Shown: piece after piece, positions 7,092 to 53,390 of the stretch | Position numbering within the stretch: the first letter of the stretch is position 1 | Layout of the letters: the number at the start of each line of letters is the position of its first letter | Origin: a virus | Lineage: Duplodnaviria > Heunggongvirae > Uroviricota > Caudoviricetes | Virus record (IMG/VR): IMGVR_UViG_3300024246_000004 | Coordinates: 27,446 to 91,445 of that record | Strand: one strand, 5' to 3' | Length of the DNA: 64,000 nucleotides | Made by a program: the position numbers and the translations under genes | The notes under the pieces: model-generated | The model's input: only the letters and a program-made list of their open reading frames with translations | The model's database searches: none | What the model was told of the DNA's origin: nothing

Positions 7092-7154
7092 CGGCGTCGC
7101 GGCCACGGCGACAATCGCGGTAGTGGGCGAGCAAGATGCCCGCACAGTGGCAGT

Positions 7155-7228: not shown

Positions 7229-7229
7229 C

Positions 7230-7301
7230 CGGAATGTGGGGTAATGGTCGCCCGCCTGCCTTGGGAGCAGGTCCACGCAGGTTCGATTCCTGTCATTCCG
7301 A
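7230..7301 (+). tRNA. tRNA-Pro(TGG)
   Basis: C1-G72 acceptor CGGAATG/CATTCCG with A73; anticodon arm CCTGC-CTTGGGA-GCAGG. Confidence 0.75.
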
Positions 7302-7416
7302 CGATCCAAGGGCAAGGATGAGAAGCGGGAACCCAAGGGTAGCGGACATGGTGAATGTATCTAGCCGAGCCGCTGAACTTTCCGTCGGCCAGATACGCCG
7401 GGGGAGCCGCAATCAA

Positions 7417-7490
<74 letters not shown>

Positions 7491-7500
7491 CGTACACTAT

Positions 7501-7573
7501 GCACCTGTGGCCGAGAGGCGAGGCGCTTCCCTGCAAAGGAAGAATGACCCCGGTTCAAATCCGGGCAGGTGCT
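7501..7573 (+). tRNA. tRNA-Cys(GCA)
   Basis: Perfect acceptor GCACCTG/CAGGTGC with U73; anticodon arm CTTCC-CTGCAAA-GGAAG. Confidence 0.8.
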
Positions 7574-7628
7574 CGATTCGGTGGCCATATACGGTACGAG
7601 ATCCACGCCAAGGCTCGCCACCGGACAC

Positions 7629-7699
7629 GCCCTTGTAGCTCAATGGCAGAGCACTCGTTTCGTAATCGAGGGACCGGCGTCCGATTCGTCGCAGGGGCT
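7629..7699 (+). tRNA. tRNA-Thr(CGT)
   Basis: GCCCTTG-TA-GCTC-AATGGCA-GAGC; anticodon loop TTCGTAA; T-loop TCCGATT. Confidence 0.65.
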
Positions 7700-7753
7700 C
7701 AGATCGGCAGCAATGTAGCTTTCGAAGACCATAACCGGCTCGCTGTCGGTCAT

Positions 7754-7826
7754 GGGGGTGTAGCTCAGGGGTTAGAGCGCTTCCCTGATAAGGAAGAGGT
7801 CGGAGGTTCAAATCCTCCCATCCCCA
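7754..7826 (+). tRNA. tRNA-Ile(GAT)
   Basis: GGGGGTG-TA-GCTC-AGGGGTTAG-AGC; anticodon arm CTTCC-CTGATAA-GGAAG. Confidence 0.85.
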
Positions 7827-7830
7827 CTTA

Positions 7831-7905
7831 GGGCCCGTAGCTCAGTCAGGTTAGAGCAGCTTCCTTTTAAGTAGCGGGTCGCAGGTTCGAATCCTGTCGG
7901 GCCCA
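7831..7905 (+). tRNA. tRNA-Lys(TTT)
   Basis: GGGCCCG/CGGGCCC; anticodon loop CTTTTAA; T-arm GCAGG-TTCGAAT-CCTGT. Confidence 0.75.
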
Positions 7906-7922
7906 CCCGCTAGACTCTTGCT

Positions 7923-8363
7923 GTGATCACCGGTAAGAGCTGTGGCAAGTGCGGTGAAGTGAAGAACCTTGAAGAATTCTCAAGGAACTCGCGTAGAAAA
8001 GATGGCCGCCAAACATGGTGCAAGAAATGTGCCCATGCACGCAGAAATGAATGGGCCAAAGAGAATCGCGATAAATGTCGGACTTACCGCCTCTACGACG
8101 CCCATGGAATCCGTATCGCCGACAAGCAGCGCATGTATGAAGAGCAAGGCGGCCTCTGTGCGGCCTGCCAGAAGAAGGAAGCTGTCGTAGTCGATCACGA
8201 CCATTCCTGCTGCCCCAACAACCGGGGCGGCTGTGGGAAGTGCGTGCGAGCGCTCCTTTGTAACCGCTGCAACCTCCTCGCGGGGTTCTTTGAGACCGAC
8301 CCGGAGGCTTGCGAGAGCGTCCAGGCGTATCTTTTGCGGTACAGTAAGACCAACCCTCCGTAA
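7923..8363 (+). CDS. Endonuclease VII-like (T4 gp49-type) nuclease
   Basis: N-terminal CGKCG Zn motif, central VVDHDHSCCP, then CNRCNLLAG: the signature of the Endonuclease_7 family. Confidence 0.7.
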   Translation: MITGKSCGKCGEVKNLEEFSRNSRRKDGRQTWCKKCAHARRNEWAKENRDKCRTYRLYDAHGIRIADKQRMYEEQGGLCAACQKKEAVVVDHDHSCCPNNRGGCGKCVRALLCNRCNLLAGFFETDPEACESVQAYLLRYSKTNPP

Positions 8364-8426
8364 CTCAGCGGCCAGAGTTGCGCCCTCTTAAGGCGAAGGT
8401 CGCCGGTTCGAATCCGGCCGGGGGGA
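8354..8426 (+). tRNA. tRNA-Lys(CTT)
   Basis: Acceptor CCCTCCG/CGGGGGG; D-arm ACTC-AGCGGCCA-GAGT; anticodon loop CTCTTAA; T-arm GCCGG-TTCGAAT-CCGGC; its 5-prime end overlaps the last codons of the endonuclease VII gene. Confidence 0.6.
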
Positions 8427-8529
8427 CGAGGCGTGCGGCACGCCGCGCGGAGATTAGGGCTAGCCCCCCAGGGGAGCCCCTCCAAAAAGCCAACTCCCTA
8501 TACTAGTTCGGGACGAGGCAGCCGCATAA

Positions 8530-8602
8530 GGGCCCGTAGCTCAGCTGGTAGAGCACTCGCCTCGCACGCGAGAGGTCCGGGGTTCGACTCCCCGCCGGTC
8601 CA
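8530..8602 (+). tRNA. tRNA-Ala(CGC)
   Basis: G3.U70 wobble in the acceptor (Ala identity element); anticodon arm CTCGC-CTCGCAC-GCGAG; T-loop TTCGACT. Confidence 0.75.
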
Positions 8603-8669
8603 CGATGCGTAGCGGCGCGCAACGGGCTAAGTAACCCGGAAGCCATGCTAGCCACTGGCAGCCGCGTAA

Positions 8670-8740
8670 GGGGTTGTAGCTCAACGGTGAGCACCTCGTT
8701 TGCATCGAGGCGGACGCGGGTTCGAATCCCGTCAACTCCA
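8670..8740 (+). tRNA. tRNA-Ala(TGC)
   Basis: G3.U70; anticodon arm CCTCG-TTTGCAT-CGAGG. Confidence 0.8.
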
Positions 8741-8876
8741 CTGGGCGGCATGCGGCATGCCGTGGGGAGCGCAGCTAGGAACTGCGCCGTCTGAATGAAG
8801 ACCACTCCCCGGAAGACGAAGGTAGGCAACCGCAAGGGTCCTAGCCTGAAGTGGGGAATCTGGAGTCAGCCGCATT

Positions 8877-8952
8877 GGGCCTATAGCTCAGCCCGGCAGA
8901 GCGCCCGCTCGGCAGGCGGGAGGTTTCGTCGGTTCGAATCCGACTAGGTCCA
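8877..8952 (+). tRNA. tRNA-Ala(GGC)
   Basis: G3.U70; anticodon arm CCCGC-TCGGCAG-GCGGG; T-arm GTCGG-TTCGAAT-CCGAC. Confidence 0.65.
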
Positions 8953-9160
8953 CTACCGCCGCGTGGTCGGCGGGGAGCGACGCATGTCGGAGATTGCGCG
9001 CTCGCAGGACAAGGCTTACCCGTGTTGGATTCCGACTAGGCACGGGAGGTAGCGTGTCCATCCGCACCGCCCCGCAACGGGCTGCCGGACCGGGTTGTGC
9101 CGGTTAGGCTGCAATACCGAGTGAGTCGCCCGGCACTCGTTAATCCCTACCGGCGAACCT

Positions 9161-9248
9161 GGAGAGGTCGGCCCCGCTGGCGGAGGCACTGTCCTGGAAT
9201 GGCAGCGGCCGTTGATTCGGTTCGTGGGTTCGATTCCCACTCTCTCCG
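9161..9248 (+). tRNA. tRNA-Ser(GGA), long variable arm
   Basis: GGAGAGG/TCTCTCC; anticodon arm CTGTC-CTGGAAT-GGCAG; T-loop TTCGATT. Confidence 0.7.
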
Positions 9249-9547
9249 CGAACTCGGCGACCAGTCTTGGAACGCAGCTCACTCTGCCTTCGTTGCCGAG
9301 TCTCACTGTCCGACAGCCAAGCGGTTCCGCGCACCATGTGCCGGGCGCTGTCGGGCTCCATGCGGGCCCTGGGGAGGTAACCTGACGGTCCACGGTGCAC
9401 CAGCGACCGTCAGCAGCTCCGTCCACTCGGAGCGCCCGCTCGATCGACAGCCATAGTGGCCTCGCACCCCGCGCTCCCTACGCTGTCGAGCTCAACCCGG
9501 TGGCCATAGCGAGAACCCTCCCACAGGACACTCCCGCCGCCGGTCGT

Positions 9548-9621
9548 GGTCCTGTAGAGCAGCTGGAGTGCTCGCCACCCTGTCAAGGTGGAGGTCGCGG
9601 GTTCAAGTCCCGTCAGGACCG
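9548..9621 (+). tRNA. tRNA-Asp(GTC)
   Basis: GGTCCTG/CAGGACC with G73; anticodon arm CCACC-CTGTCAA-GGTGG; T-loop TTCAAGT. Confidence 0.85.
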
Positions 9622-9625
9622 CTAA

Positions 9626-9698
9626 GGCGACGTAGCTCAGCGGATAGAGCGCTTCCCTCCGAAGGAAGAGGCCGTGGGTTCAAATCCCACCGTCGCCA
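9626..9698 (+). tRNA. tRNA-Arg(CCG)
   Basis: GGCGACG/CGTCGCC; anticodon arm CTTCC-CTCCGAA-GGAAG. Confidence 0.8.
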
Positions 9699-9699
9699 C

Positions 9700-9782
9700 G
9701 GAAGGTCCGACACTGGTGCGTCAAGCGTCTTCGAAAGGCGTGGCGGTGAAAGCCGTTAGCGGTTCGAGTCCGCTACCTTCCG
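9700..9782 (+). tRNA. tRNA-Ser(CGA), long variable arm
   Basis: GGAAGGT/ACCTTCC; anticodon loop TTCGAAA; T-arm AGCGG-TTCGAGT-CCGCT. Confidence 0.65.
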
Positions 9783-9834
9783 CTACCAGCAGCCGAGGTC
9801 AACGCGTATCCCAAAATCGTTCTGCTGCTGGTTT

Positions 9835-9918
9835 GGAGAGTTGCCGGAACGGTAACGGCGCCGCCTTGAAAGCGGACGGCAGGGAAACCTGGAGCAGGTT
9901 CGACCCCTGCACTCTCCG
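9835..9918 (+). tRNA. tRNA-Ser(TGA), long variable arm
   Basis: GGAGAGT/ACTCTCC; anticodon loop CTTGAAA; variable-arm hairpin CAGG-GAAA-CCTG; T-loop TTCGACC. Confidence 0.7.
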
Positions 9919-9923
9919 CGCGG

Positions 9924-9994
9924 TCCCCGCTAGTTCAATGGCAGAACGCTCGACTGTTAATCGAGAAGTACCTGGATCGATACCAGGGCGGGGA
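9924..9994 (+). tRNA. tRNA-Asn(GTT)
   Basis: TCCCCGC/GCGGGGA; anticodon arm CTCGA-CTGTTAA-TCGAG; unusual T-loop ATCGATA. Confidence 0.65.
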
Positions 9995-10012
9995 GCATGA
10001 AAGGGGGCGGTT

Positions 10013-31068: not shown

Positions 31069-31464
31069 TCAGTCCTCTTCCACCCATTGCCCGTTACGGC
31101 GTATCTCGACCTTGATGTCTGTGGCCTGTGCGGGCTTGTCGTTGCGCACCCACCGGCCGCCCTCAAACTTCCAGGCGTATCCCCGGTTCGCGCCCTCGCC
31201 GCCCTCATGCAGTTGGCGGTTCAACCACAGCTTGAACTTCGGGTGCGCCGCCATCCGCTTGAACGCGGCCCTCCGGTTTTGCAGCTGGCTGCGTTCCTCC
31301 CGACTTTCGCCGACCGCACCAGAGGGCTCATGCACGATCCTGATGCCGGTGTTGCGCTTGTTCTGGTTCTGGCCGCCGGGACCGCCGGAGCGGAACTCGT
31401 CCACCCGGCAGTCGCTGATCTTGACACTGAGTACCAGTTTACGTTCGTTCACGCCGCCCATCAT
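31069..31464 (-). CDS. ArfB-like peptidyl-tRNA hydrolase (RF-1 domain, GGQ motif)
   Basis: FRSGGPGGQNQNKRNTGIRIVHEPSG matches the class-I release-factor / ArfB catalytic GGQ region; about 130 aa with a basic C-terminal tail, as in ArfB. Confidence 0.7.
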   Translation of the reverse strand: MMGGVNERKLVLSVKISDCRVDEFRSGGPGGQNQNKRNTGIRIVHEPSGAVGESREERSQLQNRRAAFKRMAAHPKFKLWLNRQLHEGGEGANRGYAWKFEGGRWVRNDKPAQATDIKVEIRRNGQWVEED

Positions 31465-42822: not shown

Positions 42823-43158
42823 TCACGGAACGCGGGGTTTCCGGTCCCTGCCTACGGGGTTGCGCCGATTCTTGACCACCGATTCGGGGTCGTATCCGAG
42901 AGCCGCGATCTCTCCCAGATAAATCTGCTCGTACTCCTCGTAATGGCGCCGCCGCAGGATACCCAGCGCCCGGTCGCGCGCCTGGCACAGCGCTTGCGTC
43001 CGCGCCATGCGGGCTTGGACGACTGCGGCGCCTGGGCCCTTGCGTTCCTTGAGGCGGCACTCGTAGCAGAGGGTCTGGTCCCCCTGGTACTCGCGCAGCG
43101 GCCGGTCGGCGAAGCACCTGCTGCACGACTGGGTCTGCGGCTCCCCGCGCCCCTGCAT
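42823..43158 (-). CDS. Zn-finger-like hypothetical protein
   Basis: CSRCF...CYEC; start uncertain. Confidence 0.35.
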   Translation of the reverse strand: MQGRGEPQTQSCSRCFADRPLREYQGDQTLCYECRLKERKGPGAAVVQARMARTQALCQARDRALGILRRRHYEEYEQIYLGEIAALGYDPESVVKNRRNPVGRDRKPRVP

Positions 43159-43838
43159 CACGCCGCCCCCCAGTAGTGCCTGCGCACCCGCAGCAGCCAC
43201 GCCTGAGCCGCCAGCGCGTCCGGCTCAGGCGGCAGCGCCGGTGTAGCGCTGTCGAACAGCATGCTGTAGGCCTCGACCATCTTGCGCGCCTTCTCGATGT
43301 CGCCCCCCGCCACGGCATCGCCGAACGCGTGATAGTCCTGCGGGTTCTCCAGCCTGATCGGCAGGCTGCCGGTCGTGTACAGGTGGAGGCCCTGGTGGCA
43401 CAGCCGCATCAGGTGCCGGGCGTGCTTCGCGACCCGGCGCTCCGGGATGTCCGCGTCGAGAGACGTGCCGCCGCGCTGCTCCAGCCGGTGGAACTGCGCT
43501 CTGGCGTACCCGAGGTACCGGTAGCGCACCTGCCCGGCGCTCAGGAACGCCTCCCGAATGTCCACCAGATCGGCGCCCAGCGGGTTGATGATCTCGTACT
43601 CCCCGAGGAACATCAGCTCCAGGACGGTGGGGTTGCACTCCAGGGCGAGCCGCACGTACTTCGCGGCCTCGTGGAACGCGACGTCCGGGTTATGGCCGTC
43701 CAGCGTCTCCTTGGGCCTGCCCAGACCGAGGATCAGCTGGGTGGGGTAGGCGAACACCCCGAGCCGGTCCACATCCGAACCCGGTCCGGCCAGGCCGTAT
43801 GCGGTCGAGCCCACGACCCCCGAGAGCAGGACCTTCAT
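43158..43838 (-). CDS. Pol-beta-superfamily nucleotidyltransferase
   Basis: N-terminal GSTAYGLAGPGSDVDRLGVF fits the hG[GS]...[DE]h[DE] minimal NTase motif; the upstream 120 codons of the track ORF are low-complexity and excluded. Confidence 0.5.
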   Translation of the reverse strand: MKVLLSGVVGSTAYGLAGPGSDVDRLGVFAYPTQLILGLGRPKETLDGHNPDVAFHEAAKYVRLALECNPTVLELMFLGEYEIINPLGADLVDIREAFLSAGQVRYRYLGYARAQFHRLEQRGGTSLDADIPERRVAKHARHLMRLCHQGLHLYTTGSLPIRLENPQDYHAFGDAVAGGDIEKARKMVEAYSMLFDSATPALPPEPDALAAQAWLLRVRRHYWGAA

Positions 43839-43840
43839 GT

Positions 43841-44383
43841 CTAGTTCGTTGGACACCCGGTCACCCCCACCTCGGTCCCGATCACGGGGTAGTCGATGCT
43901 GCGGCCGTCGGACGTGAGGCCGGTGATCAGGTAGTCCAGTTCGTACGTTCCGTTCGTGCAGGTCGGGGCGTTCACGATGTACTGCCACGCGGCGCCCGGA
44001 CCCACGCCCGGCGGGTACTCGACCGTGGAACTGGCGATTTCCGTCAGCTTCTTGCCCTCGATCTTGGCCAGGGTCAGTTCGGTCGTCTGCTGGCCCGGGA
44101 TCTGGGCCGGGGTGTCGCAGTAGATGTCCACGCGCCCTTGGATCTGCGGGTACACGTCCGTGGTGACGGAGATCCCCGAAGGGAACGGAACGGGTTTGTC
44201 GTGGCACTCGTAGTGCGGGTCCGGTCCGGGCGCGGCGTCTGCTTTGGTCACCGGCGCGGGAGCGGCCCCGCCGACGGTGGCGTGCGCACTGGCGCTAGCC
44301 CCGGAGTGGTTGACGAGTTGGCTGGTGCAGCCGGTCAGCGCCAGAGCCAACGCGACCGCCATGATCTTGGTCCTGATCTTCAT
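43841..44383 (-). CDS. Lipoprotein (signal peptide plus lipobox LTGC)
   Basis: SD AAGGAGGACC then ATG; MKIRTKIMAVALALALTGCTS... Confidence 0.6.
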   Translation of the reverse strand: MKIRTKIMAVALALALTGCTSQLVNHSGASASAHATVGGAAPAPVTKADAAPGPDPHYECHDKPVPFPSGISVTTDVYPQIQGRVDIYCDTPAQIPGQQTTELTLAKIEGKKLTEIASSTVEYPPGVGPGAAWQYIVNAPTCTNGTYELDYLITGLTSDGRSIDYPVIGTEVGVTGCPTN

Positions 44384-44391
44384 GGTCCTCC

Positions 44392-44772
44392 TTAGTCCCA
44401 CCAGCGTGGGAAGTGTTCGGCGAAGCGCATCATCGCGTCCTTCGCCTCCTCGCGGACCCGCAACTGGGTCTCCACGTCGCGCTTGAACTTGTCCTGGGCG
44501 TATTCCATGAGCGGCCGGGCGATGCCGATGAAGTATTCCCGGGTGCCCTCCTCGCCCATCTCCTCGAAGTAGCCGGAGCCCTCGTGGGCGAACTTGAGAG
44601 CCGCCCGCGCGACGACCTCGGCGATGTACTGGTCGAAGGCCCACCAGTCGAAGACGGAGAACCCGTCCTCGGCCCGCTGGGTGCGATGTTTCGCCACGTC
44701 GGCCGCAGTCCAGTCTTCGGGCTGCTCGCGGTCGCCGTGGAAGTCGGGCACGCCGTACAGGGTGTCGGTCAC
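44392..44772 (-). CDS. Hypothetical protein
   Basis: SD AAGGAGAACGAGAGGCC then GTG. Confidence 0.45.
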   Translation of the reverse strand: MTDTLYGVPDFHGDREQPEDWTAADVAKHRTQRAEDGFSVFDWWAFDQYIAEVVARAALKFAHEGSGYFEEMGEEGTREYFIGIARPLMEYAQDKFKRDVETQLRVREEAKDAMMRFAEHFPRWWD

Positions 44773-45209
44773 GGCCTCTCGTTCTCCTTGGCCATCTCGC
44801 CCAGCTGCTTCTCCAGGTCCGCGACGTACGCGGCGTCGGCAGCGGCTTTCTTCTTGCGGGCTGCTTCGACCTCGGCCGGAGCTAGCGGCGGATCGTCGGT
44901 GACGAACACGTAGATGCCGTAGCCGACCAGCGCGACCGGCCAGAAGAACCCGTGGAAGATGGCGATCCTCGTCAGGGCGTCGTTGCTGTAAACGCGGCCC
45001 GATTCGACGCCGTCCTTCTCCTCCCACCACAGGACGTTGTAGCGGCACTTCGTGCAGTTGCCGTTGTGGTTGCGCATGGTCTGGCGCTTCGGGCAGGCCG
45101 ACTTCTTGGCTTCGTGGAGTCGGTAGCGGCGGTAGAGCAGCCGGGACGCGTAGGCCCAGAGCACCAGGTCGAGCAGCGGGATTGCGACCCCCAGTACGGC
45201 TGCGACCAT
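44769..45209 (-). CDS. Membrane protein with Cys cluster
   Basis: ORF; hydrophobic segments. Confidence 0.45.
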   Translation of the reverse strand: MVAAVLGVAIPLLDLVLWAYASRLLYRRYRLHEAKKSACPKRQTMRNHNGNCTKCRYNVLWWEEKDGVESGRVYSNDALTRIAIFHGFFWPVALVGYGIYVFVTDDPPLAPAEVEAARKKKAAADAAYVADLEKQLGEMAKENERP

Positions 45210-45424
45210 TATCGCACCCCCTTTTCTTCCAGTTCGCGGATATTGCGCCTGATCGATGAGAGCGTGTTCAAGCTGCTGCGCACGTCGGAGGGTGACGTGG
45301 ATATAGGCCCCACGTAGACCCCCTTGAAGGTTACGCGCAGGTGCTTGCCGCGTTTGTGGTGCGTGATCTCGCAGCCCATCTCTCTGATGGTTGCAACGAG
45401 GTCGCGATCGATGTGACGGGACAT
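45209..45424 (-). CDS. Small basic protein, possibly HicA-like
   Basis: ...GCEITHHKRGKHLRVTFKG... loosely resembles HicA/YcfA mRNA-interferase folds. Confidence 0.3.
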   Translation of the reverse strand: MSRHIDRDLVATIREMGCEITHHKRGKHLRVTFKGVYVGPISTSPSDVRSSLNTLSSIRRNIRELEEKGVR

Positions 45425-45436
45425 GGGCCTGCCCTT

Positions 45437-45478
45437 CTCGGGTGGGGTGTACGGGACTAACGTATCACGTACACCCCA
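45437..45478 (-). terminator. 13-bp-stem hairpin GGTGGGGTGTACG / CGTACACCCCACC enclosing the ACTAACGTATCAC motif in its loop
   Basis: Seen directly; lies between the pnkp stop and the next leftward gene. Confidence 0.5.
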
Positions 45479-45490
45479 CCAGCGCCAGGC

Positions 45491-46390
45491 CTAGAAGGCT
45501 CCGAAAGCCACCTGCGGACAGAAGATGCCCATGCCGCGCCACAGCCTGACCAGTCGGTTGCGGTCGTCCAGCATCGCCTGGAAGTTGTAGCGGTGCCGCA
45601 CGAACTTGTCAAACATCTCCAACTTCACCACGTCGTCAGGTCGGTCGTCGCCCGGCTCGCGTGTGTGGAACTCGCGGTAGAACAGGCCGTTTTTCGCCAA
45701 CCAGCGTTCGCGCTGCTCCTTGAACTCGCCCTTGCCGCCCGACAGGAGCAATACGTCGAAACCCGCGTCGCGGTACAGCCCCAGCAGGTGCGCCACCGGC
45801 ACGTTGACCGCGTCCGTCTCGATCTTGTCGAACTCGAAAGGCCCGCGCGCCACATGTAGCGCCAGCGTCCCGTCGAGGTCGCAGCCGACCGCCTTGGGCA
45901 GCGACTCGTCGGGCACGTACGGCAGCGCCACCGGCCGGTCGTTCATCCACTCGGTGGTCAGCCGCCAGCCGCCCTTGCGAGCGCCTTCCATATCCTTGGC
46001 GAGCTTATGGATCACATCCCTGCCGACGGTGCCGGTCCGACGCATCATGTCGCGTCGGACGCACTCCTCGACCGGCACATCCGTCAAGTCGTGCACCTCG
46101 AAGCGCGCCTCGGGCAGCAGGATGAAGTTGTCCTTGTAGAGCCGGGGCAGCTTGCGGTTCAGGTGCGTATTGTCGAGCACGATGTCGCTTCCCGCGCGGG
46201 CGACCGCCAGCGCGCCCTCCAGCATCGCTGTGACGGCCAGGCGCTCCCGGTCCCTCGACCAGTTTTCGCCGGTGAAACCGAGCATCGCCCTGTACTCGTC
46301 CAGGTTGAAACGCGGCACGCCCAGCGACCGCGCTAGAGTGGTCTTCCCGGACGCCGGGAGCCCTGTCGTCACATGCAGAGTTTGTGCCAT
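45491..46390 (-). CDS. Polynucleotide kinase-phosphatase (Pnkp: P-loop 5-prime kinase plus HAD 3-prime phosphatase)
   Basis: N-terminal Walker A GLPASGKTT; C-terminal HAD motif I DLDGTLA; SD GAAGGAGAGTG-ATG. Confidence 0.75.
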   Translation of the reverse strand: MAQTLHVTTGLPASGKTTLARSLGVPRFNLDEYRAMLGFTGENWSRDRERLAVTAMLEGALAVARAGSDIVLDNTHLNRKLPRLYKDNFILLPEARFEVHDLTDVPVEECVRRDMMRRTGTVGRDVIHKLAKDMEGARKGGWRLTTEWMNDRPVALPYVPDESLPKAVGCDLDGTLALHVARGPFEFDKIETDAVNVPVAHLLGLYRDAGFDVLLLSGGKGEFKEQRERWLAKNGLFYREFHTREPGDDRPDDVVKLEMFDKFVRHRYNFQAMLDDRNRLVRLWRGMGIFCPQVAFGAF

Positions 46391-47517
46391 CACTCTCCTT
46401 CGGTGGACGAGAACGTCGCGGTGCCGCTCGGCTTGACCATCTTCCACGCCATCTCCTCGATACTCTTGCCGTCGTACAGCCGGAACAGCATGGAGCTCAG
46501 GCCGGTCGGAATCGCCTCCTGCGCGAACTCCTTGCGCAGCGCCTTGTTCGTGATCGCCGCGTAGGCCACGTTCGCGGCCAGCACCTTCTCGGCGTGCGCC
46601 TGCCGCAGCCGGTCCGCGACGTCCTGCACCCAGCGCATGAACTCGTCCGGCACGTTGGCGAGCAGGTCGTCCAGCGAACCGCCGTTGGCGAGCACCTCCC
46701 AGATGGTGCGCTCGTTCATGCCGGTCAAGATCGCATGCATGCGGATGTACTCCGTGAGTTTGATCTTCACTCGCCGACCCGAGCGGTATCGCAGGACGTA
46801 GCCCTCCATGTCCGTGCCGGTGCGTACCATGCCGTGGATGTCGGCGCTGCGACCCGCGAGCTCGACCAGGACATCCAGCGGCATCTGCGGCCAGCTGCGC
46901 ACCACGGAGCCGATCGACATCCAGTCCACCATCAGGGCGTCCAGCGGGAGCTCGTCGCCCAGCCTGCCGTACACGCCGAGCAGGACCAGGTCGCGCCTGT
47001 TGCCGTGGTTGACGACGATCCGGTTTTCCGGGTAGACAATCTCGGCGAGGTAGGTGCTGCCCACACACAGGCGACTGGAGACCGGACGCCCGAACTCGTC
47101 GGCCCGGTCGATCCACGCCTGCGCCCACTGGGCCTGCTCGGAGGCGAACGAGCCGCGCGAAGCGGCGCGCCAGCGCTCCTGGCGGCGGTCCCAGAAGACG
47201 ATGCCCAGCGACCCGTCCACCTTGTCGTAGACCGTGAACGGCTCGTCCGGCAGGTCCGGCGCCCACGGGTTGCCGTGGCCGTGCTCCGAATGGTTGAAGA
47301 ACTTCGGGAACGGCCACGCGAGGATCTCGCCAGTCACGTCGTCCGCGATCAGGCCCCGGCAGCGCAGCGTCACCTCGTTCCAGTGGTGGCCGTACTGGCA
47401 GGTCTCCGTGTAGTTGAAGATCGACAGGCCGTCGCCGGAGCGTCCGCGCCGGACGCGGCCCGCGTCGATCTCCTCCTGGAGCCGTCCAGGGCCGAACAGC
47501 TCGTCGAGCGTGGTCAT
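46390..47517 (-). CDS. RNA ligase (Rnl1-like, KxDG nucleotidyltransferase)
   Basis: Motif I YDKVDGSLG; SD GAAGGGGGCAGTC-ATG; stop overlaps the pnkp start (TGATG). Confidence 0.6.
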   Translation of the reverse strand: MTTLDELFGPGRLQEEIDAGRVRRGRSGDGLSIFNYTETCQYGHHWNEVTLRCRGLIADDVTGEILAWPFPKFFNHSEHGHGNPWAPDLPDEPFTVYDKVDGSLGIVFWDRRQERWRAASRGSFASEQAQWAQAWIDRADEFGRPVSSRLCVGSTYLAEIVYPENRIVVNHGNRRDLVLLGVYGRLGDELPLDALMVDWMSIGSVVRSWPQMPLDVLVELAGRSADIHGMVRTGTDMEGYVLRYRSGRRVKIKLTEYIRMHAILTGMNERTIWEVLANGGSLDDLLANVPDEFMRWVQDVADRLRQAHAEKVLAANVAYAAITNKALRKEFAQEAIPTGLSSMLFRLYDGKSIEEMAWKMVKPSGTATFSSTEGE

Positions 47518-47597
47518 GACTGCCCCCTTCATGGATTGCGGCGTGAGGATCATGGGTTTCGAGAGTACTGTGGCCGCAATGGGGACTAACGTATACC

Positions 47598-47632
47598 AGA
47601 AAGGAGCTGGACGCTACACGATATCGTCCAGC
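47598..47632 (-). terminator. 11-bp-stem hairpin GGAGCTGGACG / CGTCCAGCTCC, followed on the coding strand by GGTATACGTTAGTCC
   Basis: Seen directly; a terminator-then-promoter arrangement between the HTH gene and the rnl-pnkp operon. Confidence 0.5.
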
Positions 47633-47814
47633 TCCTCGCCCCGCGCCATGCCCTTCACGAGAAGACCCATGATCATTGAGCGGGCGAAGCGGTACTGGCC
47701 GCCTGGAGTCAAACACGTCGGCTCAAGCTGGCCGCGCTTCACCCACGCGCACACGGTCTTCGTGCTCACGCCGAACAGCTCCGCCACCTCGCCGGAGCGC
47801 ATGAGCTTATCCAC
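47614..47814 (-). CDS. MerR/Xis-family HTH DNA-binding protein
   Basis: GEVAELFGVSTKTVCAWVKRGQL helix-turn-helix. Confidence 0.6.
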   Translation of the reverse strand: MDKLMRSGEVAELFGVSTKTVCAWVKRGQLEPTCLTPGGQYRFARSMIMGLLVKGMARGEELDDIV

Positions 47815-47820
47815 CGTCGC

Positions 47821-48129
47821 CTACTCTCCAGGGTGGATGGCCGCAGCAGCATCCCTCAGCTTGCGCGCCAGACCGCTGCGCACCGCCGTCAGGTCGCTCG
47901 CCAGCTGCTCCTTGACCAGGCGCCCCTGCTCGCGCAGGTCGTCCATGGCGGACGGCGCGGCGTCCTGGGGCTGGATCTCCGCCAACCGCCTCTCCAGCTC
48001 CTCGACCTCGGGGATCAAGGTCTTGAGGGACACGGCGATGGCCCTGAGGGTGCTGGCGGGCGCGGTGCTCGGTCCATCGGCCAGTTCCAGGACGATCTCA
48101 AGCTTCGCGCTTGTCGTAACGAGTCCCAC
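47821..48129 (-). CDS. Hypothetical protein
   Basis: ORF. Confidence 0.45.
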   Translation of the reverse strand: MGLVTTSAKLEIVLELADGPSTAPASTLRAIAVSLKTLIPEVEELERRLAEIQPQDAAPSAMDDLREQGRLVKEQLASDLTAVRSGLARKLRDAAAAIHPGE

Positions 48130-48147
48130 GACAACTCCTTTCGATAG

Positions 48148-48199
48148 GGCCCGGCGGCGGGGCGAGGTAGGTCGTCGAGTCCTCCTTGGCCGCCGGGCC
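48148..48199 (-). terminator. 11-bp GC-rich hairpin GGCCCGGCGGC / GCCGCCGGGCC adjacent to a CTTCTAACGTACTAC motif
   Basis: Seen directly. Confidence 0.45.
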
Positions 48200-48211
48200 G
48201 CTTCTAACGTA

Positions 48212-48523
48212 CTACGAGACGTTCAAGTGGGCCGCTTCCACGGCCGCGTCCGACTTCGCCTGGAGGAGGTCTTCCTCCCAGGCGAATGTCGGTCTGTGCG
48301 CCGTGGAGACGAACCGGAAGTTCTGGCGGCCGACACGGCTGCCCTGCACATCACGGTACAGGTACACCATGACGCCGCCCTCCACCGGCTCGCTGGCCGC
48401 CTTCCATAGCGCGCGGTCGGTTTCCTTGCGCATCCTGTCTTGGCGTGAACCCCGGATGACCAGCATCATGGCGAACACCACGATGCCGATCACCGGGACC
48501 GCCACGATGACGGCGTCGCCCAT
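48212..48523 (-). CDS. Membrane protein
   Basis: N-terminal hydrophobic helix. Confidence 0.45.
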   Translation of the reverse strand: MGDAVIVAVPVIGIVVFAMMLVIRGSRQDRMRKETDRALWKAASEPVEGGVMVYLYRDVQGSRVGRQNFRFVSTAHRPTFAWEEDLLQAKSDAAVEAAHLNVS

Positions 48524-48526
48524 GGC

Positions 48527-49570
48527 TTACTGAGTCGCCAGATTCAGGCCGCTGCCGCTACCGAGAGATAGCAGCCCCTTCGGGAGCGCGCCCAGTTCGT
48601 CGATCGTCTGGCACGCCGGGCAGTTCTTGTAGCCCGCCTCCTTGGCCGCGTTCGCCTCGGCCTGGAGCTGCGCCTGCTTGACCAGGGCCTGCTGCTTCGA
48701 GACCTCCGCGTACGCCGCCTGTGCGTCGTTGACCGCGCCCTGCACGTTGCTCGGCAGCGAGACGCGCACGATCGTGAACCGCACGCCGGTCAGGAACTGG
48801 AACGGCTTGCCGCCGTGCTTGGCGAGGTCCGAAGCGTCCACCGCCGTGTTCAGCTGAGTGTCCAAGTCCTGCTGCAACGTGGCGTTGATCTTGTCCTGCA
48901 CGGCCGCGATGTTGCCGTTGTTGTTCACGCCGCCGGTGACCACGGCCGCCTGCTGCGTCGAGTTCTGCACCAGCGCACACGCGCTGTCCAGCTCGGCGCA
49001 GGACGTCTGCGCCACGAGCTCGCGCAGGTCGTTGTTCAGGATCGGCCGTACCGCCACGTCGATGAACGCGCCCCACCCCTGGTCACCGTCGTAGGCGTGG
49101 AACGCGTTGCCGTTGTCGGTGTAGGTGCGGGTGCCGTACAGATTGTCGAACACGCCGAGGGTCTGGTGGTCGAGGTTCAGGCTGTAGTACAGAGTGCCCT
49201 CGATGCCCATCTCCACGCCGTCGGAGCTCGGCGTCTGCACGACGTCCACGCCCACCTTGTCGCCCTGGTTCGGGTCGGCCGAGATCGTGTACGTACGCTG
49301 CTGCGCCGGGTACGTGTGGATCGTGGAGTAGATGCCCGTGTTGGTCATGCTGCTCTGCGGATCCAGGAAGCCGCGCTCGTTGGAGTTCGAGAACCAGCCT
49401 CCGTTGCGCTCCACGCCGATGTGTCCCGCGTCCATGCTCTGGAACGCACCGATCCACGGGAACAGGAAGATCATCCCGACGGTGACGCCGACGACGCCCA
49501 GCAGGCCGCAGCCGACGAGCTTCGCCGAAACCTCCGGCACGCCGGACGTGTTGCGCGAGTAACCGCTCAT
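48527..49570 (-). CDS. Membrane-anchored protein, possibly SPFH/band-7-like, with C-terminal coiled coil
   Basis: N-terminal TM helix, beta-rich middle, Ala/Gln-rich C-terminus; SD GGAGGGGTGT-ATG. Confidence 0.4.
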   Translation of the reverse strand: MSGYSRNTSGVPEVSAKLVGCGLLGVVGVTVGMIFLFPWIGAFQSMDAGHIGVERNGGWFSNSNERGFLDPQSSMTNTGIYSTIHTYPAQQRTYTISADPNQGDKVGVDVVQTPSSDGVEMGIEGTLYYSLNLDHQTLGVFDNLYGTRTYTDNGNAFHAYDGDQGWGAFIDVAVRPILNNDLRELVAQTSCAELDSACALVQNSTQQAAVVTGGVNNNGNIAAVQDKINATLQQDLDTQLNTAVDASDLAKHGGKPFQFLTGVRFTIVRVSLPSNVQGAVNDAQAAYAEVSKQQALVKQAQLQAEANAAKEAGYKNCPACQTIDELGALPKGLLSLGSGSGLNLATQ

Positions 49571-49598
49571 ACACCCCTCCATTCATTCGATGCTTCTC

Positions 49599-50498
49599 TT
49601 ATCCCCCGGGCGCGTTCACCGTGACTTTCGCGCTGAATAAGGCCCGGAAGTTCAATCGCGGCGGCTGGATGATGGGTTCCGGTTCACCTTTGGCCGCGAA
49701 GCCTGTGTGCCAGCCGTGGAACTCGCTGGGGCGCGGCTCCTGCACGGCTGGGGCCTCCTCGAACGAGGGCAGCGGCGGAATGTGCCTCGCCAGCCACGCA
49801 TCCGGAGCGGCGGTCATCGAGGGAGCGTCCTGCATGAGCCACCGGACATCGACGCTGCCGAGTTCCTGGCGTACACAGACCCGGCCGTAGCGGAACGCCT
49901 TCGGCTCGTCGATCCAGTAGACGCCCTTCTCCTGCTCCAGTTTGTCCTCCAGTTCGACCCCGCCGAGGCCCTGGATCTCGCCGTGGGGGAAGTGTGCCCG
50001 TGCCAACATGATCTTGGAGTTGCGCTCCGTGTCGCGCTGCCGCCACGCGAAGTAGTTTGCGACTTCGACGGCGTTCGGAAGCGGGAAGACCCGTGCGTCG
50101 AACATGCCGGGGCGGCGCAGGATGACGCCGGGTTCGCGCGAGTAGCCGAGGAACGCCAGGGTGGCGATGGCGGAGCTGATGGACGCGATCTTCTGGACGC
50201 GTCCGCCGAACCACGGCTGGGTGCGGTAGTCCTCGTACCCACATACCAGGACACTGACTTCGTCGGACTGCTGGTAGGCGAATACCGCGCCGCCGATCTC
50301 GGCGCACAGCGCCTGGGCGACGTATCCCATGTACCGGGCCACGACCGTGTCGAACGGCTTGTCGGCACCGCGCAGCAGGGTGTGGAACGCCCGGCCGTCC
50401 ACGCGGATGATCGCAGGCAGGTAGCGGGGCAGGATGCTGCCGGTTGCGGCCTCGTAGGCCTTCATCCGGTCACCGAGACCAGTTCCGTCGCTCGCCAT
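49599..50498 (-). CDS. Thg1-like protein (tRNA-His guanylyltransferase family; 3-prime-5-prime polymerase for tRNA 5-prime end repair)
   Basis: MKAYEAATGSILPRYLPAIIRVDGRAFHTLLRG...FAYQQSDEVSVLV matches the Thg1/TLP N-terminal catalytic core; SD GAATGGAGGCGCT-ATG. Confidence 0.65.
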   Translation of the reverse strand: MASDGTGLGDRMKAYEAATGSILPRYLPAIIRVDGRAFHTLLRGADKPFDTVVARYMGYVAQALCAEIGGAVFAYQQSDEVSVLVCGYEDYRTQPWFGGRVQKIASISSAIATLAFLGYSREPGVILRRPGMFDARVFPLPNAVEVANYFAWRQRDTERNSKIMLARAHFPHGEIQGLGGVELEDKLEQEKGVYWIDEPKAFRYGRVCVRQELGSVDVRWLMQDAPSMTAAPDAWLARHIPPLPSFEEAPAVQEPRPSEFHGWHTGFAAKGEPEPIIQPPRLNFRALFSAKVTVNAPGG

Positions 50499-50569
50499 AG
50501 CGCCTCCATTCGTGAGCCGGGGACCGACGGCGGTCCGATCATGGGAATCGCAGTTCCTTGGGCCGTCGG

Positions 50570-50725
50570 TGTGCATAACGTATCACGTTCACTTCAGTTC
50601 TCGCAACCGCCCCCGGACGCACAGTGCACTGGGCTTCGGGTCGTCGATGGTCCGGGAGCGGCCGGTCGCGGAGGAGGGCTGGGTCTCGCTTGACCTCTGG
50701 TGACCGGCATAACGTATCACGCCTG
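50570..50725 (+). promoter_or_regulatory. Two direct copies of GGCATAACGTATCACG (50575 and 50708) in the divergent region between the Thg1-like gene and a rightward 4-gene unit
   Basis: Seen directly; 133 bp apart. Confidence 0.5.
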
Positions 50726-50834
50726 TACGCCCAAAGGAATGAACCTCCTACTATCCACACACGAAAGAGCGTATGTTGGTCGCGTAACGACGACAGGAGG
50801 CACGGTGGAGCGGGAAGAACCCGAACAGGAAGAC

Positions 50835-50972
50835 ATGATCACTCCGGCGATGCAGACCGCCATCTCGACCCACGAGATGTTCACGGCGCTGCGCCAGGCC
50901 GGGTTCTCGCGCAGCGAGGCGCTCACCATCGTCATCGGCATGCTCTCCGCGAACAGCGGATCAGGCGATTGA
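50835..50972 (+). CDS. Small hypothetical protein (45 aa)
   Basis: SD GAACAGGAAGAC-ATG. Confidence 0.4.
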   Translation: MITPAMQTAISTHEMFTALRQAGFSRSEALTIVIGMLSANSGSGD

Positions 50973-50973
50973 C

Positions 50974-51210
50974 ATGTGGCCCAACGACCTCGCCGAGGCG
51001 CAGAACCCGATCACCCGCAGCCTGGTGCGCTTCCATCCGTCAGTGCACATCGAGAACGCCGCGCAGTTCGACTACTTCTACGCCGCCTTCAAGGAATACT
51101 GCGAGGTCGCCTACCGCCTCGCGCACCTCGATCCCGGTCATATCGACGCACCTTACGGCTGGGTGCTGCCTCGTGAACCCCACATGCTTCCGGAGGAAAC
51201 CCGTGGATGA
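50974..51210 (+). CDS. Hypothetical protein
   Basis: ATG overlaps the upstream stop. Confidence 0.45.
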   Translation: MWPNDLAEAQNPITRSLVRFHPSVHIENAAQFDYFYAAFKEYCEVAYRLAHLDPGHIDAPYGWVLPREPHMLPEETRG

Positions 51211-51391
51211 GCCGATCTCCGCTTTCGGACGCCCCTATCACGCCGACGACACCCGCGTGCTGTTCTGCGGTGCCGCCGGTCCCTGGTGCGGCTGGCTGCG
51301 CACGAGCAACAACGAAGCGCAGCACACGCGGTTCGTCGCCGAGCGCGAGGAGCACCAGGACGGCTGCAAGAGCGGCCTGGTACGCCTGTGA
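51203..51391 (+). CDS. Cys-containing small protein
   Basis: SD GGAGGAAACCC then GTG. Confidence 0.45.
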   Translation: MDEPISAFGRPYHADDTRVLFCGAAGPWCGWLRTSNNEAQHTRFVAEREEHQDGCKSGLVRL

Positions 51392-51855
51392 CGACTTGGA
51401 GCAATCTGGCGCGGGTCGTCGAGGCCCGCGCTACACTCCCCAGTCCGGCCGAGCGCAGGCGGTTGCGCATCGACGCGGGCATCACGGTCAAGTCGCTGGC
51501 CCAGGTCCTCGGCATTTCCGTGAGCGCCATGAACTCGCTGGAGCGCGCGGAGAACCCCGGCGAGAAGTACCTGGTGGACTATGTTAACGCGCTCAATACG
51601 ATGCGCCGCCCCGCGCCGGAACCCGCACTCACCACGCAAGAGGCCGCTGAACTGCGCGAGCAGTGGGAGAAGTCCCCCTGCGGGGCCTGCGGAGGCCTAC
51701 ACGTCACGGCCCTGAAAACTCCCGGGGCGTGCCCGCGCATCAAGCGGATCGCCTACGACGCCCAGGGCCGTATGCTCGAAGTCGAATACTGGCCGGACGG
51801 CAAATGGCCGAAAGACGGCATCATCTGGCCGGACGGGATCATGGCGGAAGAGTAG
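51388..51855 (+). CDS. XRE-family HTH transcriptional regulator
   Basis: LRIDAGITVKSLAQVLGISVSAMNSLERAEN HTH; GTG coupled to the upstream stop. Confidence 0.6.
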   Translation: MTTWSNLARVVEARATLPSPAERRRLRIDAGITVKSLAQVLGISVSAMNSLERAENPGEKYLVDYVNALNTMRRPAPEPALTTQEAAELREQWEKSPCGACGGLHVTALKTPGACPRIKRIAYDAQGRMLEVEYWPDGKWPKDGIIWPDGIMAEE

Positions 51856-51861
51856 CCCCGG

Positions 51862-51911
51862 CGCCGCGAGCGCCCTGGTTATCGTTTTTGTCTCGGGCGC
51901 CGGGACGACTA
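51862..51911 (+). terminator. Hairpin CCCGGCGCC...GGCGCCGGG with an internal CGTTTTTGTC
   Basis: Seen directly, after the XRE gene. Confidence 0.4.
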
Positions 51912-51977
51912 AAGTAGCAGGGTCACGTGACATTGACGAGTTCTGGCGCTACGATAACCACGATGGGAGCACTGGCG

Positions 51978-52166
51978 ATGGAAATCCCCCTGCGCCGCAA
52001 GTACAAGTCCGCGAGCGCCAAGAACACGCGTTCGACCAGTAGCACCTCCGGCTCCTCGAAGCAGAAGCGCAAGGGTCAGAGCGTGAAGAACGCGCCGACC
52101 CGTATCCGCGTGCTCGTCTTGGTGGATGGACGCCGCCGCTCCTGGACTTGGCGGGACGTAAACTGA
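51978..52166 (+). CDS. Small basic Lys/Ser/Arg-rich protein (62 aa)
   Basis: SD GGGAGCACTGGCG-ATG. Confidence 0.45.
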   Translation: MEIPLRRKYKSASAKNTRSTSSTSGSSKQKRKGQSVKNAPTRIRVLVLVDGRRRSWTWRDVN

Positions 52167-52168
52167 GC

Positions 52169-52212
52169 GAACCGGCCGCCGCGCTGACCCCCGGCGGCCG
52201 GTTCTATTCTGC
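52169..52212. terminator. Strong bidirectional rho-independent terminator (12-bp stem GAACCGGCCGCC / GGCGGCCGGTTC followed by TATTCT)
   Basis: Seen directly, between convergent genes. Confidence 0.7.
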
Positions 52213-52262
52213 GGCGGATCTTGATATGGGCTACGCGCCTGTTATGGCCGCCAGGCCGCTGC

Positions 52263-53390
52263 TCACTCGTACTCCGTGCCGCCCTTGCGCTCCAGGTAGG
52301 CGTCACTCACGAACTTCAGGATGGCCCGGCCGCCGAGGATGCCCGAACGCCGCTCCGCCATCGAACGGACCACGACCCCCTCGCGCAGGGTGTCCGGGTC
52401 GAGCATGCTCTGCTTGACCTCGGCGAACGCGGCGAGCAGCCCGTAGTCGTACGGCCCCTGATACACCAAGGGTGCGCGGGGAACGCCGGTGCGGTTGGCG
52501 AACGCCCCCAGGTATCCCTCGGAAAGCCAGAACGGCTCGCCCTCCACCGGCACGAGGTACGCGTCGAACAGGGCGTAACCGAGCGTCTCGTTCCGGCTGG
52601 CGTCCGCGCCGTAATGCAAGTCCTGCACGCCTTTGCCGTACACCTCCCCGAACAAGCCGACCGCGCGCACGCCGTAGAACTCTTTGGCCGCCAGCGCGGC
52701 CTCGCGCAGCCGGTACTGGCGCGCGGCGCGCCAGTAGAGGTTGGTCTCCGACTCCTTGAGCGCCAGGCTCTTGCCGCCGAAACCCTTCGAGGAGACGTAC
52801 TCGCGGCCATCCTCGGCCAGCGTGTACAGGCAGCACGTACCGTGGATCTTCTCCGTGGCGACCACCATCTCGCCGGGCGTGAAGACCTCCGGGTAGCGCT
52901 TGACGTTCTCGATCTCGATCCAGCGGATCAAATCCGGTGCCGACTCCACTTCACCAGCCATGCCGACGGGGATTGGCGGAATCCACTTGGTGATGCCGAG
53001 GGCTTCAGCGAAGTCGCTCTCGGGCGTCCAGGGCCCCTCCGATTCCGGCATGGCGTTGGCGGCCCACTCCCACACCTCCCGCATCGCACCCCACTCGAAG
53101 GGGACGCCTTTCGGGCGGCAGACGATGCCCTGGGATAGCTCGCCGCGCAGTCGCACCGCCTTGACGCGGTTCTTCGCCGGGCCCGCGAGCCTGCCGGTCA
53201 GGCCGAGCTCCTCGATGAGCGCATCCGGCAGAACCGCCTGCTCCGGGATGTACAACGCAAGCTCGCCGTCCTTATAGACGCCCTTCGGTACGACGGCGCG
53301 GAACAGGCCCACCTGGGCGAGTTCCAGCAGATCGGCGTTGGGGTGCGGGAAGATCCGCAGCTTCTCGACTTTGACCTCGAACCCTGACAT
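52263..53390 (-). CDS. Rnl2-family RNA ligase with an N-terminal extension
   Basis: Motif I ATEKIHGTCC (KIHGT, as in T4 Rnl2-type ligases); the N-terminal 160 aa are an additional domain. Confidence 0.5.
   Translation of the reverse strand: MSGFEVKVEKLRIFPHPNADLLELAQVGLFRAVVPKGVYKDGELALYIPEQAVLPDALIEELGLTGRLAGPAKNRVKAVRLRGELSQGIVCRPKGVPFEWGAMREVWEWAANAMPESEGPWTPESDFAEALGITKWIPPIPVGMAGEVESAPDLIRWIEIENVKRYPEVFTPGEMVVATEKIHGTCCLYTLAEDGREYVSSKGFGGKSLALKESETNLYWRAARQYRLREAALAAKEFYGVRAVGLFGEVYGKGVQDLHYGADASRNETLGYALFDAYLVPVEGEPFWLSEGYLGAFANRTGVPRAPLVYQGPYDYGLLAAFAEVKQSMLDPDTLREGVVVRSMAERRSGILGGRAILKFVSDAYLERKGGTEYE

Follow-up and report, generated by a model that had tools for sequence, protein, structure and literature searches.

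The window analysed here, a stretch of 64,000 nucleotides from an uncultured phage, contains a gene for a small protein that is, judged by its sequence, a stand-alone GGQ-domain protein of the RF1/RF2 type and not an ArfB. The gene probably encodes a minimal release-factor peptidyl hydrolase that rescues stalled ribosomes in a codon-independent manner. Such rescue hydrolysis appears to be the most sensible function for the protein, for which we infer catalysis, the mode of ribosome binding and the stall that is recognised. The family to which the protein belongs (PHROG 3122) is already annotated, and the protein described here adds to it a member with a subgroup-specific insert.

The GGQ gene and its genomic setting

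The features of the gene and of the window are collected in Table 1. The GGQ ORF is real; its in-frame GC3 is 0.82, like that of the other genes of the window (65.8% GC), and an identical GGQ protein is encoded on two metagenome contigs (42.8 and 91.4 kb). The peptide SGGPGGQNQNKRNTGIRIVHEPSG corresponds to residues 26-49 of the protein and includes the catalytic motif at residues 30-32.

Table 1. Coordinates of the GGQ gene, its parts, its neighbours and other features of the window
Feature	Position	Strand	Remarks and basis
GGQ (RF-1 domain) protein gene, stand-alone	31069..31464	-	131 aa; ATG start, TGA stop; Pfam, PHROG
GGQ catalytic domain, release-factor domain 3 type	31246..31431	-	aa 12-73, Pfam
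GGQ motif G30 G31 Q32	31369..31377	-	GGC GGC CAG, read from sequence
C-terminal module, family-specific	31072..31242	-	aa 75-131
Upstream co-directional gene, cupin-like, 149 aa	31439..31888	-	PHROG 4786 'cysteine dioxygenase' 1.2e-33; L001 gene call
Downstream co-directional gene, 104 aa	30755..31069	-	sequence; gene call in L001
tRNA array, 36 tRNAs, 19 amino acids (none for Tyr)	1093..9996	+	ARAGORN; 33 confirmed by Rfam at gathering score
uS9	39443-39898	-	Pfam Ribosomal_S9 148.6 bits, full length
uL13	39901-40428, probable start 40320	-	Pfam Ribosomal_L13 151 bits, full length
RlaP nucleotidyltransferase	43158-44207	-	Pfam
T4 Rnl1-type RNA ligase	46390-47553	-	Pfam
Band_7	48527-49582	-	Pfam
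Thg1-like	49599-50576	-	Pfam
RNA ligase PF09414	52263-53390	-	Pfam

The gene lies within a tight run of co-directional genes on the minus strand. At its 3' end, the ATG of the downstream 104-aa gene shares bases with the stop codon of the GGQ gene (TGATG at 31067-31071), a layout that is typical of translational coupling; this downstream gene had no Pfam, PHROG or PADLOC match. At the 5' end, the cupin-like gene overlaps the start of the GGQ ORF by 26 nt. The true start of the GGQ gene may be the GTG at 31452, which would yield a protein of 127 aa with the MNERK N-terminus of the closest homologues and would shorten this overlap to 14 nt. The cupin-like gene gave no match in a Pfam search, and homologues of it are found near the GGQ gene in two loci of relatives (L057 and L045). 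Among the ten flanking ORFs, a Pfam search returned no matches and PHROG returned only families of unknown function and the cupin 'cysteine dioxygenase'. The adjoining genes were also considered as functional partners and set aside, as these ten ORFs are uninformative and a census of neighbours in relatives revealed no universal partner. A scan for promoters and terminators in its vicinity gave no signal beyond that expected from shuffling.

Farther away, the RNA-repair genes of the window, called from Pfam matches above the gathering score, form a block spanning 43158..53390 on the minus strand. The suggestion in the preliminary description that the GGQ protein complements tRNA supply and repair genes is thereby borne out as far as the content of the window goes, which includes both a tRNA array and RNA-repair genes, but not as far as their placement is concerned: the array and the GGQ gene are separated by 21,073 bp and occupy opposite strands, the repair genes are 12-22 kb away, and the adjoining ORFs are small and uncharacterised. 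It counts against a rescue role that the GGQ gene in this window adjoins no RNA or translation gene. Within the window, tmRNA was found neither by ARAGORN nor by Rfam, tblastn revealed no RtcB, and no Pth was found. Portal and capsid-like genes at 54273-62774 confirm that the source is a phage. It is an actinobacterial phage, and its uL13 shares up to 89% identity with uL13 proteins of actinobacteria.

Domain identity and fold

The protein matches the Pfam RF-1 family (PF00472) with 62.7 bits (E = 4e-17; gathering cut-off 35 bits) over residues 12-73, which align to profile positions 5-67 of 116, and it matches PHROG 3122 ('RF-1 domain peptide chain release factor') with E = 1.1e-36 and 126.9 bits. 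Since the Pfam score exceeds the gathering threshold and the GGQ motif is unchanged in all 118 aligned homologues, its initial identification as a phage-encoded GGQ/RF-1-domain protein stands. The protein has only ~11 residues ahead of the GGQ domain and ~57 beyond it, and it lacks domain 1 as well as the codon-recognition domains 2 and 4.

Within the broad group of GGQ factors, the closest relationship is with domain 3 of RF1, RF2 and mtRF1, that is, the GGQ domain together with helix alpha7, which gave the best sequence and fold matches and shares the same catalytic motif. In a sequence search of the PDB, these domains were found with E values of 1e-9 to 1e-11 over residues 15-85 without gaps, followed by PrfH (1e-6) and C12orf65 (7.5e-5), and the GGQ domain aligns gaplessly to residues 109-179 of E. 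coli RF1 and 297-354 of mtRF1. The NCBIfam profiles gave the same picture for the release factors, with 62.9 bits for prfB, 58.6 for prfA and 49.5 for prfH, and only 26.2 bits for ArfB. The protein is nonetheless not a full-length RF1 or RF2, a candidate rejected on account of scores of 55-63 bits against cut-offs of 370-423 (TIGR00019, TIGR00020, NF001859), with matches limited to profile positions ~209-283. Whereas full-length RF1 and RF2 comprise ~360 aa and carry the PxT/SPF tripeptide 'anticodon' motif, the phage protein, at 131 aa, has no means of reading a stop codon.

AlphaFold2 (AF2) models were obtained for the GGQ protein (pLDDT 79.7, and above 90 across most of the GGQ domain) and for a 112-aa homologue from M. 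abscessus (pLDDT 87.4). Both models show an RF domain 3 fold that leads into a long helix and ends in a small terminal beta-hairpin, and the GGQ protein contains all the elements of domain 3, namely a three-stranded sheet, the GGQ loop and the long helix. Foldseek matched it to ribosome-bound RF1 and RF2 with a probability of 1.0. The fold searches placed mtRF1, PrfH, RF1 and RF2 ahead of C12orf65, and the latter ahead of YaeJ and ICT1, the paired values of the comparison being 8.0 / 8.6 for mtRF1, 8.0 / 8.4 for PrfH, 7.2 / 7.5 for RF1, 6.8 / 7.4 for RF2, 6.2 / 6.8 for C12orf65, 5.5 / 5.6 for YaeJ and 4.8 / 4.7 for ICT1.

The intermediate position of C12orf65 bears on one of the alternatives to the proposed function. 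C12orf65 (mtRF-R) is a eukaryotic, organellar factor that has MTRES1 as its partner. A phage protein that worked as mtRF-R does would release peptides from peptidyl-tRNA stuck on split large subunits and not on 70S ribosomes, perhaps aided by an S4-domain protein of the host (Hsp15/RqcP type). This is decidedly unlikely, as C12orf65 is outmatched by RF1, RF2 and PrfH in every comparison, the neighbourhood census contains no gene for an S4-domain partner, and the C-terminal modules have no detectable similarity. A counterpart of the C-terminal extension of C12orf65 or of its partnership with MTRES1 was likewise not detected in the phage.

Comparison with ArfB and features of the C-terminal module

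ArfB/YaeJ and ICT1 (mL62) resemble the phage protein in being small stand-alone GGQ proteins of similar length that are presumed to be codon-independent hydrolases, and the ArfB-like size that had been noted for the protein is accurate (131 aa versus about 140). In spite of this, they are the weakest match among the GGQ families, and the assignment to the ArfB type made in the preliminary description is not supported. The ArfB / YaeJ equivalog profile (NCBIfam NF006718) requires 100 bits and is matched by residues 12-45 only; in the PDB search, ArfB, YaeJ and ICT1 appeared with E values of 0.1-0.9 and with alignments that stop at residues 43-45, whereas the phage sequence remains collinear with RF1 past this point, where ArfB and ICT1 diverge; and no ArfB is found among the best 50 Foldseek matches. 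The GGQ domain is thus of the RF1/RF2 type and not of the ArfB/ICT1 type, and ArfB was rejected as an identity for the protein, every feature tested (profile score, tail and type of GGQ domain) having failed.

The basic tail that the protein had been credited with is also missing. The tail of E. coli ArfB has a net charge of approximately +13. In the phage protein, the distal 47 residues (85-131) have a net charge of -1, and the helix segment 62-84 is the only basic stretch. Across the 118 homologues, the region that follows the Pfam match has a median length of 50 residues and a median net charge of +1, with a range from -10 to +5, so that +6 is reached by none of them. Moreover, AF2 predicts the tail region of the two modelled proteins as hairpins and short helices, not as an extended basic helix. 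The phage protein could in principle be a true ArfB-type factor, whose C-terminal tail would insert into the mRNA entry channel left empty in non-stop ribosomes, thereby licensing release by the GGQ motif; given the profile, structural and charge comparisons described above, this is very improbable, and probing of the channel in the manner of ArfB is the least supported variant of the mechanism. Correction of the label has a practical side, as the model of a basic tail in an empty channel should not be assumed when experiments are designed.

Instead of a basic tail, the family possesses a C-terminal module of its own, for which a search of the C-terminal 73 residues alone against the PDB found no sequence match. 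It is composed of a stretch that prolongs the long helix (PKFKLW), a subgroup insert and a conserved terminal hairpin, IKVEIRRNGQWV. The signature of the family consists of P-K-F-K-x-W at positions 75-80 and [N/D]-L-K-V-E-V-R-x-[N/D]-G-x-W-V at positions 116-128, in which F77, W80, E120, G125 and W127 are conserved in at least 90% of the 118 homologues. The insert, of ~20 aa (residues 88-108), occurs in 31 of the 118 sequences; AF2 models it as a low-confidence beta-hairpin and places helices at the same position in the short members. The module, which possibly confers ribosome binding or stall specificity, has 57 residues and is nearly neutral, a size and charge that count against the proposed function.

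The GGQ motif is present in 118/118 homologues, and the alignment contains 18 invariant columns, which include R55, R58, Q60 and N63 of the release-factor core. Such strict conservation of the motif and of the catalytic core speaks for catalysis and against a decoy role.

Distribution of the family and genomic context of its members

A protein search identified 667 relatives, of which most are metagenomic and most measure 105-131 aa. Within the phage collection, a full-length relative is encoded by 207 records (47-58% identity over residues 8-130), the best match being the M. abscessus prophage prophiT49-2 (58.5% identity), and no near DNA match to this uncultured phage was found there. Named members of PHROG 3122 are gp204 of Mycobacterium phage ScottMcG, gp209 of McGee and gp135 of prophiT49-2. 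The present protein shares with the family its size, the GGQ motif, the conserved residues F77, W80, E120, G125 and W127 and the C-terminal module, and differs from most members in belonging to the insert-bearing subgroup. In a scan for cellular or prophage copies, the matches listed were housekeeping RF1/RF2 genes only.

The literature on phage GGQ/RF-1 proteins that was found consists of annotations and a survey of tRNA arrays from 2018; an experimental study was not found. The survey tied a phage RF-1 gene to mycobacterial tRNA arrays and suggested a rescue role for these genes, with extra rescue factors going together with extra tRNAs (PMC5966550), while a genome announcement merely lists the RF-1 gene (PMC9583779) and the classification of release-factor hydrolases by Burroughs and Aravind never mentions phages (PMC6514570).

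Genomic context was compared in 80 IMG/VR loci drawn from 205 viral contigs that encode relatives, which de-replication at 80% identity reduced to 43 lineages. At least five tRNAs lie within 10 kb of the gene in 29/80 loci (12/43 lineages), and a tRNA lies within 1 kb in 24/80 loci (10/43 lineages). In 6/43 lineages the array surrounds the gene, with a tRNA no more than 300 bp away on either side, and nearly all array tRNAs are on the strand of the gene (584/589). The density of tRNAs is 0.97 per kb over the first kilobase and drops to 0.2-0.3 per kb at a distance of 5-10 kb (80 loci), this within-locus fall with distance being the only control for tRNA proximity. The array-linked lineages cover 36-64% GC, and in L008, which at 74% identity is the closest relative among the viruses, the gene is flanked by tRNAs at 45 bp on its upstream and 23 bp on its downstream side. 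In prophiT49-2, the gene lies within a tRNA array, between tRNA-Asp and tRNA-Glu, with tmRNA 5 kb upstream and with the gene order RF-1, tRNA, RtcB, Pth; a copy in an M. abscessus chromosome is in the same block, with PTH2. The present copy thus differs from that of prophiT49-2 and of many metagenomic relatives, in which the gene is in or beside a tRNA array, in being located elsewhere. Other recurrent neighbours are tmRNA (7/80 loci) and a metallophosphoesterase (12 loci), and an unbiased census of neighbours is made up mainly of antisense shadow ORFs, HNH endonucleases, the metallophosphoesterase, primase-helicase and terminase.

The association with RtcB is relevant to a second alternative, a PrfH-like factor for ribosomes damaged by nucleases, for instance by a cut in 16S rRNA at the decoding centre, with a working order in which the peptide is released, the subunits split and an RNA ligase repairs the RNA. 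The PrfH-RtcB2 mechanism has been established experimentally, and the specificity of PrfH is provided by an N-terminal rRNA-recognition domain of ~100 residues, which is akin to RF domains 2 and 4 and formed by residues 2-98 and 180-204 (PMC9304027). RtcB is encoded within 10 kb of the phage gene in 9/80 loci and within ~1 kb in five of the 80 (L012, L015, L039, L069 and L073, which differ in GC), in addition to the gene order of prophiT49-2; the prfH profile scores well above that of ArfB, and genes for RlaP and two RNA ligases are present in the window. On the other hand, PrfH itself was rejected as an identity, as the match (TIGR03072) is far below the equivalog cut-off of 166.65 and covers the GGQ domain only, and the phage protein has ~11 residues where PrfH (RFH), the partner of RtcB2, has its rRNA-recognition domain. 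The ligases of the window are of the Rnl1 and Rnl2 types and lie 15-21 kb away, there is no RtcB in the window, and 71/80 loci have none within 10 kb. A PrfH-like role is therefore unlikely.

The gene is also found in other surroundings. Its neighbours in ScottMcG are DNA polymerase III alpha and UvsX, in Cluster C phages it is surrounded by replication and recombination genes, and in another relative it is near terminase. The Cluster C and near-terminase placements limit the association with tRNA arrays to about a quarter of the lineages. That the gene of many phages is unlinked to tRNA or repair genes, as in the replication module of Cluster C and in the early-type clusters of small ORFs seen here, would suit a factor for host shut-off or modulation of translation, acting through premature termination on host ribosomes or as a competitor or decoy in the A site, and any vacant A site is in principle a target for a protein without codon recognition. 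Such a role is nevertheless highly improbable: the strictly conserved catalytic residues point to catalysis, the recurrent co-oriented embedding in tRNA arrays and the linkage to Pth2, tmRNA and RtcB point to support of translation, and the protein matches no known defence-system component (no PADLOC match).

Proposed function

In the preferred reading, that of a codon-independent rescue hydrolase, the protein would consist of a GGQ domain and the long helix that follows it, capped by the small family-specific C-terminal module. Where a ribosome is unable to proceed, the protein would enter its A site and insert the GGQ loop into the peptidyl-transferase centre, where the P-site peptidyl-tRNA would be hydrolysed without a stop codon being read, after which the ribosome could be recycled for the synthesis of phage proteins. 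Binding or the sensing of the stall may be supplied by the helix together with the Trp-rich module, both reaching toward the decoding-centre side, a role that would parallel those of the basic tail of ArfB and of the rRNA-recognition domain of PrfH. An unregulated codon-independent hydrolase would harm translation, so some form of discrimination must exist. Candidate stalled states are the non-stop 70S ribosome, a ribosome with a hungry A-site codon, one whose decoding centre has been damaged by a nuclease, and the split 50S subunit. The source of the stall would likely be damage to or depletion of tRNA, mRNA or rRNA, brought about by host nucleases, by toxins or by the shut-off of the host that the phage induces, and the 36 tRNAs, the RNA ligases, the Thg1-like enzyme and RlaP of this phage may address the same problem. 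The presence of these genes in the window, together with uL13 and uS9, speaks for the rescue reading, as does the linkage to tRNA supply and repair genes in relatives.

Phage tRNA arrays are now viewed as countermeasures to tRNA-targeting immunity and to the loss of host tRNAs. Replacement of tRNAs leaves behind those ribosomes that are already jammed with peptidyl-tRNA, and a codon-independent release factor encoded by the phage would fill this gap; it would also explain the repeated embedding of the gene in tRNA arrays beside RtcB, Pth2 and tmRNA. A bolder version of the rescue reading, which we regard as possible but doubtful, would make PHROG 3122 a fourth, mechanistically distinct class of stand-alone GGQ rescue factors of bacterial type beside ArfB, PrfH and C12orf65, in which the Trp-rich module senses an A-site codon starved of its tRNA. 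The stalls would then arise from tRNAs cleaved or depleted by defence nucleases of the host, a state that ArfB handles poorly, and the gene would be the protein partner of the tRNA arrays, often co-transcribed with them, in an anti-defence 'translation rescue kit'.

The lead is thus one at the level of the family, given its non-ArfB architecture, the embedding of its genes in the tRNA arrays of diverse phages and its occasional pairing with RtcB. The family is widespread: members occur in roughly 200 cultured mycobacteriophages amenable to engineering, in M. abscessus prophages of clinical relevance and in metagenomic phages numbering in the hundreds. A single GGQ gene is ordinary for large actinophages.

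Gene junctions and the upstream cupin-like gene

The gene encoding the stand-alone GGQ protein is closely packed between its neighbours. Its stop codon overlaps the start of a downstream 104-aa ORF as TGATG (31067-31071), and the upstream gene overlaps it by 26 nt (31439-31464), or by 14 nt if translation starts at the GTG at 31452. Such an arrangement would fit an operon of small genes linked by translational coupling. A scan around the gene revealed no promoter or terminator signals above chance near these junctions.

The directly upstream gene encodes a cupin-like protein. Two further viral loci carry homologues of it (68-76% identical) close to their GGQ genes, at 10559-10978 in L057 and at 8070-8507 in L045. 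Since gene order and spacing vary among these two loci and the window, the co-occurrence may reflect shared ancestry rather than functional coupling.

Features annotated in the window
Feature	Position	Strand	Remarks
tRNA call Gly-tcc	21554-21655	-	ARAGORN, 102 nt; without Rfam support
Cupin-like protein	31439-31888	-	PHROG 4786 'cysteine dioxygenase'; HDHPWW...H.H motif
tRNA call Ile-gat	31849-31921	-	ARAGORN; without Rfam support
uS9	39443-39898	-	full-length Pfam match, 148.6 bits
uL13	39901-40428 (probable start 40320)	-	full-length Pfam match, 151 bits
RlaP nucleotidyltransferase	43158-44207	-	
T4 Rnl1-type RNA ligase	46390-47553	-	
SPFH/Band_7	48527-49582	-	
Thg1-like 3'-5' polymerase	49599-50576	-	
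RNA ligase PF09414	52263-53390	-	with OB domain
Metallophos_2	53401-54231	-	weak match, sub-threshold
1140-aa ORF	54273-57695	+	Phage_portal domain, residues 154-528 only

RNA repair functions in related loci and in the window

Among the viral loci encoding relatives of the GGQ protein, an RtcB-family RNA ligase lies about 1 kb or less from the GGQ gene in L012, L015, L039, L069 and L073, and within 10 kb also in L049, L060, L074 and L086. The contigs with RtcB beside the small GGQ gene differ in GC content. These neighbourhoods echo the bacterial prfH-rtcB2 pairing, although PrfH carries a recognition domain that the small viral GGQ proteins lack. In 12 loci (L011-L016, L031, L060, L076, L078, L086 and L087), a gene no more than 4 kb from the GGQ gene encodes a calcineurin-like metallophosphoesterase, as exemplified by L060 8070-8636, with DLHLGH...GNHD motifs; the identification is based only on motifs seen by eye and on a Pfam Metallophos label in L004. 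The recurrent protein may be an RNA-end-healing enzyme.

In the window, genes for RNA repair and tRNA maturation are grouped at 43158-54231 on the minus strand. The tRNA array (1093-9996, plus strand) comprises 36 genes covering 19 amino acids, with Tyr missing, and 33 of the 36 are supported by Rfam at the gathering score. Neither ARAGORN nor Rfam detected a tmRNA in the window, whereas Cluster C mycobacteriophages and the M. abscessus prophage prophiT49-2 possess one. The two minus-strand tRNA calls receive no support from Rfam and are likely to be spurious hits within coding sequence of high GC content; the Ile-gat call extends over the beginning of the cupin-like gene.

Structural and ribosomal proteins

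Apart from the Phage_portal match, roughly 600 residues of the portal ORF are unassigned, and the ORFs that follow it (903 and 623 aa) gave weak sub-threshold matches only (zinc ribbon; SU10 major capsid).

The adjacent uL13 and uS9 genes (39443-40428, minus strand) are arranged as in the bacterial rplM-rpsI operon. In all 80 related viral loci the pair is absent from the 10 kb on either side of the GGQ gene. A survey of ribosomal proteins encoded by viruses lists uS9, whereas L13 is not mentioned (PMC6375957). Phage uL13 shares up to 89% identity with uL13 from uncultured actinobacteria, 84% with that of Actinospica and 81-82% with that of Catenulispora; this high identity implies a recent capture from the host and suggests that the host resembles Catenulisporales.
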